A stretch of DNA of 27,214 nucleotides from a virus. Lineage: Duplodnaviria; Heunggongvirae; Uroviricota; Caudoviricetes. Each line of letters starts with the position of its first letter. The first letter of the stretch is position 1. This document shows positions 7,560 to 8,492 of this stretch, in pieces. The translations under genes and the position numbers were made by a program. The stretch lies in IMG/VR virus record IMGVR_UViG_3300039366_000144, positions 1 through 27,214 of that record. One strand, given 5' to 3'. The notes below the pieces were generated by a model. The model ran no database searches, had not been told where the DNA came from, and saw nothing but the letters and a program-made list of their open reading frames with translations.

Positions 7560-8492
7560 TTAAGTTAGAAGCCGTTCCTCGTAATCGTCGGTTGTGGGCA
7601 TTTTTCCGATCTCTGTCATGCGACACACTAATCGGGATAAAAGCACTCGTACCTCAATTATATGCTCAACTAAAAAGTTATCTGACGTAGCTCCCCCATG
7701 CACTGCCTTCGAACGGTAGTCATACAGCTTCTTAACCCTACGATAGGTGGCTAAACGATCAGGCCCTCGCTCCTCAAGATATGCTGCAGCCATAAGAGCA
7801 AGACGAAAACGAAGCTCTGAATTGATTCCAAAGAGCGCTTCAAATCCTGCCCATAAAGCAGCAGCAGCCATTCTCAAATTCGCGTGTTGGTTATGAGTTG
7901 TTAAAGAATCAATAGCGAGCCGGAATGCTGGTTGCTCTAGCAAATCTATCCAACGCTTGAGATTCTCTTGAACCCAGTCGAGAGACTCTACTGATATCTC
8001 TACACTTGGGCTTATTCTCCGAACTGCCGGCACGTCCTCAAGAAGTTGGACTTCACACGAGTTGGCTTGAAGAGCAGGGAATACATCCCAAGATGCACTT
8101 GCTACTGCAGGAACAAGTATATCGGTGAGTGTGCGGCATCGGATCGCGGATATGATCCACCATCCGATAGTCAGGTCTGATTGAGAAAATTTCGACTCAC
8201 TGCTTTGCAACGCAAGCTCATGCGTAACTGCGGGCATATGACGAGCAACAGCGCTGAGTAGCGACTTGCTCTTAAGCGCTTTGGCTAACTCTATCTCTCC
8301 TGGTGGATGAAGTACCTCCCTTAATTCACCTACGTCTTGGAAAACATAAGGCCCGTTTCGAAACGTCAATCCTGACAAAGCGAAACAGATCTCATTCTGA
8401 CTGGATAAACTAGATATTCGAGTTGCAGCGTATTTCTTGCGAGACTCGAAGTAGTTAAGTAAACCTGACAATTTTTCTTTGTTGATTTCCAT
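7560..8492 (-). CDS. HEPN-like (Abi-like) protein, 310 aa; candidate abortive-infection RNase
   Basis: C-terminal all-helical region with R260-x4-H265-G266 (YDYRSKAVHGG) between predicted helices, the HEPN Rx4-6H signature; stand-alone gene with its own upstream dyad. Confidence 0.5.
   Translation of the reverse strand: MEINKEKLSGLLNYFESRKKYAATRISSLSSQNEICFALSGLTFRNGPYVFQDVGELREVLHPPGEIELAKALKSKSLLSAVARHMPAVTHELALQSSESKFSQSDLTIGWWIISAIRCRTLTDILVPAVASASWDVFPALQANSCEVQLLEDVPAVRRISPSVEISVESLDWVQENLKRWIDLLEQPAFRLAIDSLTTHNQHANLRMAAAALWAGFEALFGINSELRFRLALMAAAYLEERGPDRLATYRRVKKLYDYRSKAVHGGATSDNFLVEHIIEVRVLLSRLVCRMTEIGKMPTTDDYEERLLT

Follow-up and report, generated by a model that had tools for sequence, protein, structure and literature searches.

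The window analysed here is a stretch of 27,214 nucleotides (nt) that makes up positions 1 to 27,214 of the IMG/VR virus record IMGVR_UViG_3300039366_000144 (Caudoviricetes), and its main subject is a gene on the minus strand (7560..8492) predicted to encode a HEPN-domain protein of 310 amino acids (aa). The window comes from the chromosome of E. coli and matches NZ_CP031215.1 with 100% identity. Left of the prophage lie the Vat autotransporter island, with vat and a MarR regulator, and then an N-terminal integrase fragment. Strains that lack further insertions run from the island and this fragment straight into thrW, proA, and proB. Similarity of the window to that uninserted arrangement ends within thrW, and comparison with these strains revealed the 3' 46 nt of the tRNA-Thr gene thrW at 7064..7109 (minus strand), an attachment-site (att) duplication at the end of the prophage. 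An intact thrW and a tyrosine integrase are found ~38 kb further on (NZ_CP031215.1 2348523-2349731; locus L024 21524-22732), and the 2 copies of thrW enclose a complete prophage whose tail genes are Mu-like, whose head is of HK97 type, and whose regulatory region is lambdoid. Because the 3' end of thrW is duplicated on the left and the intact copy lies with an integrase ~38 kb away, this comparison indicates that the window from 7110 to its end is one thrW-integrated prophage, beside the older Vat island and integrase fragment.

The HEPN gene is situated in the att-proximal cargo end of this prophage, ahead of the tail-fibre genes. The same end also holds a gene for a 327-aa membrane protein, a tRNA-Pro-like scar, pseudogenes of DinI and of a helix-turn-helix (HTH) protein, and an acyltransferase gene. 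The original prediction, made from the window alone, had placed the gene between att-like scars next to the tail-fibre end, and both scars were found, one being the thrW remnant and the other the tRNA-Pro-like stretch at about 10560-10683.

The open reading frame begins with an ATG. Compared with orthologues of 74-99% protein identity, its ratio of nonsynonymous to synonymous substitutions (dN/dS) is 0.06-0.12, so that it is a genuine gene under purifying selection. The motif YDYRSKAVHGG begins at residue 257 of the protein, which places the catalytic Rx4H signature at R260 and H265, followed by G266. The signature, R260-S-K-A-V-H265-G266, is encoded by the codons CGT TCG AAG GCA GTG CAT GGG (7695..7715, minus strand). 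Gene and motif are thus both where the original prediction, which named no strand, had read them.

An AlphaFold2 model built from a 36-sequence alignment was of high confidence (predicted local distance difference test, pLDDT, 91.8; predicted template modelling score, pTM, 0.89) and divided the protein into an alpha/beta domain (residues 1-165) and an all-helical domain (168-309). For annotation, we delimited an N-terminal alpha/beta domain at residues 1-167 (7992..8492, minus strand), with a proposed sensor or regulatory role, and a C-terminal HEPN domain at residues 186-310 (7563..7937, minus strand). The latter has the four-helix up-down bundle of a HEPN fold, with the motif ending core helix 3. 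W214 and E218 are located on the helix at 206-221, the conserved W..(I)E helix 1 of the domain; the Rx4H signature closes the helix at 244-264, and the helix at 271-295 comes next.

A word-indexed search returned 220 homologues, nearly all of about 300-320 aa, from Enterobacteriaceae, Pseudomonas, Burkholderia, Ralstonia, Acidobacteria, and Planctomycetota. An exhaustive profile search extended the family to 3,819 clusters (50% identity) at E≤1e-3, with 686 at 1e-10 and 182 at 1e-30. Among the PHROGs, the protein belongs to phrog_28161, of unknown function. R260, S261, H265, and G266 do not vary among the 36 aligned close homologues, and R260-x4-H265 is also invariant in an alignment of 34 C-terminal domains. 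The conservation extends to 57 relatives of only 22-35% identity, where R260 is kept in 56, H265 in 55, G266 in 54, W214 in 56, and E218 in 54.

Assignment of the C-terminal domain to a known family depended on the method used. Scans of the 310-aa protein against Pfam, NCBIfam, and PADLOC gave no matches even at E≤10, and for distant relatives, first 10 and then 57 of them, the family libraries returned isolated sub-threshold matches only, among them single Pfam matches to HepT-like (0.011), Swt1 (0.15), and RiboL-PSP (0.22) models. Searches of PDB sequences with the full-length protein, the full-length profile, or the N-domain profile likewise returned nothing meaningful. The C-domain profile, built from the 34 sequences, was the only query to yield a match, to ApeA (Thr1ApeA, E=2e-4; Ec2ApeA, E=0.033). 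The match to Thr1ApeA covers 2 stretches, the W..IE.L helix and Y..R....HG, and in the profile alignment R260 pairs with R502 of Ec2ApeA, a catalytic residue that was mutated to inactivate the enzyme (ApeA preprint). The position of R260-H265 at the close of helix 244-264 agrees with the active site of ApeA, whose residues lie in core helix H3 (ApeA preprint). In the HHblits analysis of DefensePredictor, the best remote match was PD-T7-4 (DUF4145), with a probability of 63.8 and a coverage of 0.29.

We are therefore highly confident that the 310-aa product is a HEPN-domain protein, as its signature had suggested from the start: the motif is conserved, and a sequence profile links it to ApeA. 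The ways of checking this proposed at the outset gave mixed outcomes, as the family libraries returned nothing where the C-domain profile found ApeA, and the structure prediction gave a confident model with a helical C-domain where the fold search found no relative. The profile comparison places the C-terminal domain among the HEPN domains of an ApeA-like clade, with an intact catalytic signature. By analogy with such enzymes, the protein is predicted to be a metal-independent endoribonuclease.

For the N-terminal alpha/beta domain (165 aa), neither a Pfam family nor a solved fold was a match, in line with the earlier reading that this part holds no recognised motif. Among distant relatives, its mean identity to the query is 21%, against 37% for the HEPN domain. 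It is nevertheless retained in 53 of 56 distant members, and G41, P64, E92, R118, W135, and E152 are kept in most. Its presence in nearly all members and the retention of these residues make it an integral, conserved partner of the nuclease domain, without a recognised fold relative.

The gene was found in 27 of 5426 complete E. coli genomes, in all at ≥99.4% identity. It is carried on a mobile single-gene cassette of 1216 bp (7365..8580, minus strand) that is 99% identical in Qin-like lambdoid and P2-like prophages and consists of the gene, 88 bp upstream that include an inverted repeat, and 195 bp downstream that include hairpins. Together with the thrW prophage, these settings make up 3 unrelated prophage slots. 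In the Qin-like prophage, the cassette is flanked on one side by the replication region (DUF977, YdaT, Cro/CI) and on the other by hokD-rem-DUF968-RusA-Q. In related Qin-like prophages, the hokD/DUF977 slot is taken by a gene for an FRG-domain protein, by QueH and a KwaB-like protein, by DUF4209, or, in K-12-like strains, by relBE. In P2-like prophages, the cassette is located between the tail-fibre assembly and tail sheath genes, and near-isogenic P2-like prophages carry Retron-Eco8 or a Sll1717-family P-loop ATPase at exactly the same position. The P2 locus concerned holds the exclusion gene fun and is a second defence-enriched hotspot (Vassallo et al. 2022). The cassette shares its slot with validated defence systems, which occupy it in elements that are otherwise isogenic. 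No homology to a housekeeping enzyme was detected, and the gene appears as a rare, solo cassette in phage accessory slots, alternating with known or candidate defence genes.

Outside E. coli, Enterobacter homologues occur in P4-like primase islands by an FRG protein, or in a thrW island by a UDG-family protein and CbtA/CbeA. On IMG/VR contigs of Pseudomonas type, a homologue lies beside an integrase and a primase, and a Paraburkholderia homologue adjoins Ogr/Delta genes and a second HEPN-like paralogue. Homologues also occupy non-phage chromosomal sites in Pseudomonas, Paraburkholderia, and Planctomycetota. A tblastn search of plasmids gave just 2 distant matches. As a separate observation, in NZ_CP018948.1 the gene is matched only from nt 99 on and in 2 places (about 3984216-3985050), which suggests that this copy is disrupted.

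All-against-all BLASTP of the neighbours in 7 contexts showed no conserved partner gene, the sole match being the Paraburkholderia HEPN-like paralogue, and no MNT antitoxin gene was found among the neighbours in any context. The neighbours are tail genes, hokD/DUF977, or genes for FRG, UDG-family, and transmembrane proteins, none of them conserved; those with transmembrane helices recur near the homologues but without sequence relation. As no neighbouring protein is conserved between contexts, the comparison of sequences argues that the HEPN gene is solo, and the original statement that no antitoxin-sized partner is present holds across contexts.

The flanks of the gene are structured on both sides. 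Upstream, a perfect inverted repeat (11-8-11, GCTATTGTGTA-N8-TACACAATAGC, 100% complementary) at 8514..8543 lies 22 nt before the ATG, and is a candidate operator or hairpin of the 5' untranslated region. It is single-copy in the window, was matched by 0 of 100 shuffles, and the upstream leader that contains it folds as RNA with z=-3.8. The repeat is unchanged in all 3 E. coli contexts and degenerate in an orthologue of 88% identity. Directly after the stop codon, folding revealed a terminator-like element at 7521..7559 (minus strand), an AT-rich stem-loop followed by a T-rich tract, which a G+C-based scan missed. A second downstream hairpin at 7468..7499, with 14-nt arms that are 93% complementary, was found by inverted-repeat search and folding, and the 108-nt stretch with both hairpins folds with z=-4.2. 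The operator-like dyad and the downstream hairpin that had been noticed in the sequence are therefore both real features, the latter with a second hairpin beyond it. On the strand of the HEPN gene, the G+C-based scan flagged no terminator and a sigma-70 consensus scan no promoter. A search beside the gene for tandem repeats resembling type III antitoxins found none. The structured flanks are not conserved in orthologues of 74-88% identity.

Separately, an inverted repeat, TGGCAC(A/T)G ... C(T/C)TGTGCCA, borders the upstream edge of the cassette in 3 contexts (L010, about 15181-15230; L019, about 7860-7910, where it reads TGTACCA; L020, about 7870-7945). The window retains only its inner arm, TGTGCCA, at 8570-8576. 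This border repeat may terminate the preceding gene or serve as a recombination site in cassette exchange.

The conserved motif, the link to ApeA, and the mobility of the cassette among defence slots support the original proposal of a candidate abortive-infection effector, and we consider it likely that the gene functions in anti-phage defence. The idea is not new. The RefSeq name of the protein is “HEPN domain-containing protein,” and Table S10 of DefensePredictor (Science 2026), which covers 1,041 uncharacterised clusters, lists its exact accession as a “predicted novel defense gene,” with a mean log-odds of 9.43, where the stringent cutoff is 4. It does not figure among the DefensePredictor systems that were cloned and tested, and it matches no PD-system model from Vassallo 2022 (PADLOC).

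As for the mechanism, we lean towards a compact abortive-infection RNase similar to ApeA and HepS, that is, a self-contained single-protein nuclease that temperate phages and satellites carry as a moron cassette. The protein would be made constitutively in the lysogen yet held inactive, as no antitoxin is present and it would have to be silent at rest by itself. Its HEPN domains would dimerise to form a composite active site, an arrangement stated in the HepS (Nature 2026) and ApeA papers that is a general property of HEPN proteins. An infection cue, either a phage protein or a small ligand derived from nucleic acid, would be sensed by the N-domain or by a pocket between it and the HEPN domain. 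The activated RNase would then cut cellular RNA, likeliest the anticodon loops of tRNAs, so that translation and phage replication are halted. HepS and ApeA are both solo HEPN tRNA anticodon nucleases that are inactive until triggered, and by this analogy tRNA is a tentative candidate target, one on which we would not yet count. More speculatively, the N-domain may be a new sensor fold that forms, with the HEPN domain, a pocket that binds a conserved small molecule or nucleic-acid fragment arising from infection, making the protein a minimal ligand-gated tRNA anticodon nuclease. We regard this version as rather unlikely. If it were true, this family, whose thousands of clusters range from Enterobacteria to Planctomycetota and Acidobacteria, would share only the catalytic core with ApeA.

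Several points weigh against an infection-triggered defence RNase. The trigger and RNA target are drawn purely from analogy, and defence, toxicity, and RNase activity of the family stand as predictions. None of the Pfam HEPN models gave a significant match on 67 family members, and Foldseek found no match for the predicted structure. The N-domain is fairly conserved within the family, unlike what would be expected of a fast-evolving sensor of phage proteins. Some homologues lie amid ordinary chromosomal genes, and by tblastn none of the deposited phage genomes in INPHARED carries the gene.

Comparison with known systems places the protein between 2 of them. Like ApeA (Gao_Ape; structures 9hxl/9hxd), it is a single polypeptide with a non-catalytic N-terminal part, a C-terminal HEPN domain, and no partner, and it aligns with ApeA in the WxxIExL helix as well as in the YxxR(N/S)xxxH(G) motif. 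ApeA is larger, however (about 550-600 aa), with helical N and Mid domains and large insertions in its HEPN domain, as opposed to 310 aa, an alpha/beta N-domain, and a compact HEPN domain. The Pfam HEPN_Apea and ApeA_NTD1 models and the PADLOC ApeA models matched neither the protein (E≤10) nor any of 57 distant relatives, and the N-domain profile did not match ApeA. ApeA forms doughnut-shaped oligomers and is activated by deoxydinucleotides.

HepS, the “HEPN solo” of Gifsy-1 (Nature 2026), is similar in being a solo gene with an Rx4H motif in the accessory region of a lambdoid prophage, without an inhibitor partner. It is constitutively present and inactive, and causes abortive infection through cleavage of tRNA anticodons (Nature 2026). 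In HepS, however, the motif is at R100-H105 and there is no extra domain, whereas here it lies at 260-265 behind an N-terminal domain; the HepS homologue set (STM14_3211) was restricted by its authors to stand-alone proteins of ≤250 aa. No PDB chain besides ApeA was matched in our sequence searches, in a set for which the presence of HepS was not confirmed. As the ApeA hidden Markov models fail and size and N-terminal fold differ, the protein does not belong to the ApeA family, nor does it belong to that of HepS; it resembles ApeA in function and architecture and HepS in setting.

Other HEPN systems are further removed. Tha, the tail-activated HEPN system of S. aureus prophages, is likewise encoded by a prophage and is a HEPN defence activated by proteins of the incoming phage, but in a different host clade, and we detected no sequence relation to it. 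The type VII toxin-antitoxin system HepT/MntA (HEPN-MNT) has an MNT gene beside the toxin gene; here there is none, so that the gene is not a module of this type, and the N-domain is additional. PD-T7-4 (DUF4145, Vassallo 2022) resembles it as an E. coli defence protein that is encoded by a single gene and has a remote HEPN-like domain, but the PADLOC PD-T7-4 and Pfam DUF4145 models fail and the similarity is confined to the C-terminal third. The C-terminal HEPN domain of AbiA (8oz7) belongs to a 597-aa reverse transcriptase fusion, and has 8% identity to the present protein, which has no reverse transcriptase domain.

Alternatively, the prophage could be stabilised by an addiction (toxin-antitoxin) module with the protein as its toxin. 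The antitoxin would then be an unrecognised one, for instance a small RNA from the flanks, comparable to the regulation of AbiF by RNA, and any defence would be a secondary effect. The structured flanks are consistent with this, as is the position of the cassette where other prophages hold relBE. However, no context offers an MNT gene or other protein partner, tandem repeats of the type III antitoxin kind are absent, and the flanks are not conserved in orthologues of 74-88% identity although the protein is. Furthermore, solo HEPN defence proteins without an antitoxin are now documented, and we consider an addiction toxin improbable.

A marginally poorer candidate is a nuclease that serves the phage itself, in RNA processing, host takeover, or counter-defence during lytic growth or induction, for example by degrading transcripts of the host or of a competitor. 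The E. coli copies lie almost exclusively on temperate phages and satellites, the gene belongs to a PHROG, and in P2-like phages it has the same orientation as the late tail genes. Against such a role, it has its own flanking regulatory elements, its cassette moves regardless of phage type, and the slots it occupies are known for morons expressed in the lysogen. It is also found in P4-like islands and at the non-phage chromosomal sites named above, and is absent from all deposited phage genomes searched. A non-catalytic, ligand- or nucleotide-binding HEPN-like domain in a regulatory or scaffolding protein is very improbable, given that R260, H265, G266, E218, and W214 are near-invariant across about 25% identity and that R260 aligns with the proven catalytic arginine of ApeA.

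Solo HEPN proteins that sense infection and kill, such as ApeA, HepS, and Tha, are only now coming to be understood. If the protein proves to be a solo abortive-infection RNase, the repertoire of HEPN effectors would gain a new sensor module, and a small, tractable system would become available for how an RNase stays silent without an antitoxin. The gene also illustrates how a probable defence cassette of 1.2 kb moves among accessory slots in temperate phages that are unrelated (thrW prophage, Qin-like, P2-like). In practical terms its value is limited, as the domain is named in RefSeq and the protein is listed by a published machine-learning screen.

Several other features of the window and of related loci were recorded. 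The 327-aa protein is encoded at 9278-10261 (minus strand), 785 nt upstream of the HEPN gene. It has N-terminal and central transmembrane segments and coiled-coil stretches, and matches phrog_5157 (unknown function) over its full length, with no significant Pfam or PADLOC match. A two-gene system with the HEPN gene was considered and rejected, as the gene for the 327-aa protein is not part of the shared cassette and is missing in the P2 and Qin contexts. For the same reason it is probably a separate moron, possibly for superinfection exclusion or another defence function. At about 10560-10683 (plus strand), RefSeq annotates a tRNA-Pro of 82 nt (L001 17161-17242). In the window, ARAGORN detected no tRNA, nor did Rfam at E≤0.1. 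Over about 100 nt, this stretch is 88-90% identical to tRNA-Pro loci of other E. coli genomes, and it is probably a degenerate att-site remnant within the cargo region.

FRG-domain proteins recur with the HEPN gene (L002-L006, 4262-5617, minus strand; L028, 2081-3415), as divergent neighbours in the Enterobacter P4-like islands and as alternative occupants of the hokD/DUF977 slot in E. coli, and may be another uncharacterised defence-slot family. Two genes from the Paraburkholderia homologue, a 325-aa protein (L009, 4193-5170, minus strand) carries ALYSYRSALAHGG, a motif like that of the query, in its C-terminal part. BLASTP matches the protein weakly to query residues 228-270, and no Pfam model matches it. 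Its sequence marks it as a putative second, divergent HEPN-like paralogue, located by the Ogr/Delta genes.

An acyltransferase-3 gene (11560-12585, plus strand; Pfam E=6e-28) is located where the GC content is low, with the DinI/HTH pseudogenes on one side and the tail-fibre assembly gene on the other, and looks like a typical prophage moron for O-antigen modification (serotype conversion). Left of the prophage, vat, encoding a vacuolating autotransporter toxin of 1377 aa, and the gene for the MarR-family regulator (1353-6136, plus strand) make up the Vat pathogenicity island at thrW. The integrase fragment that follows this island (6571-6909) is a truncated P4-type integrase, of which only the Arm-DNA-binding domain is left.
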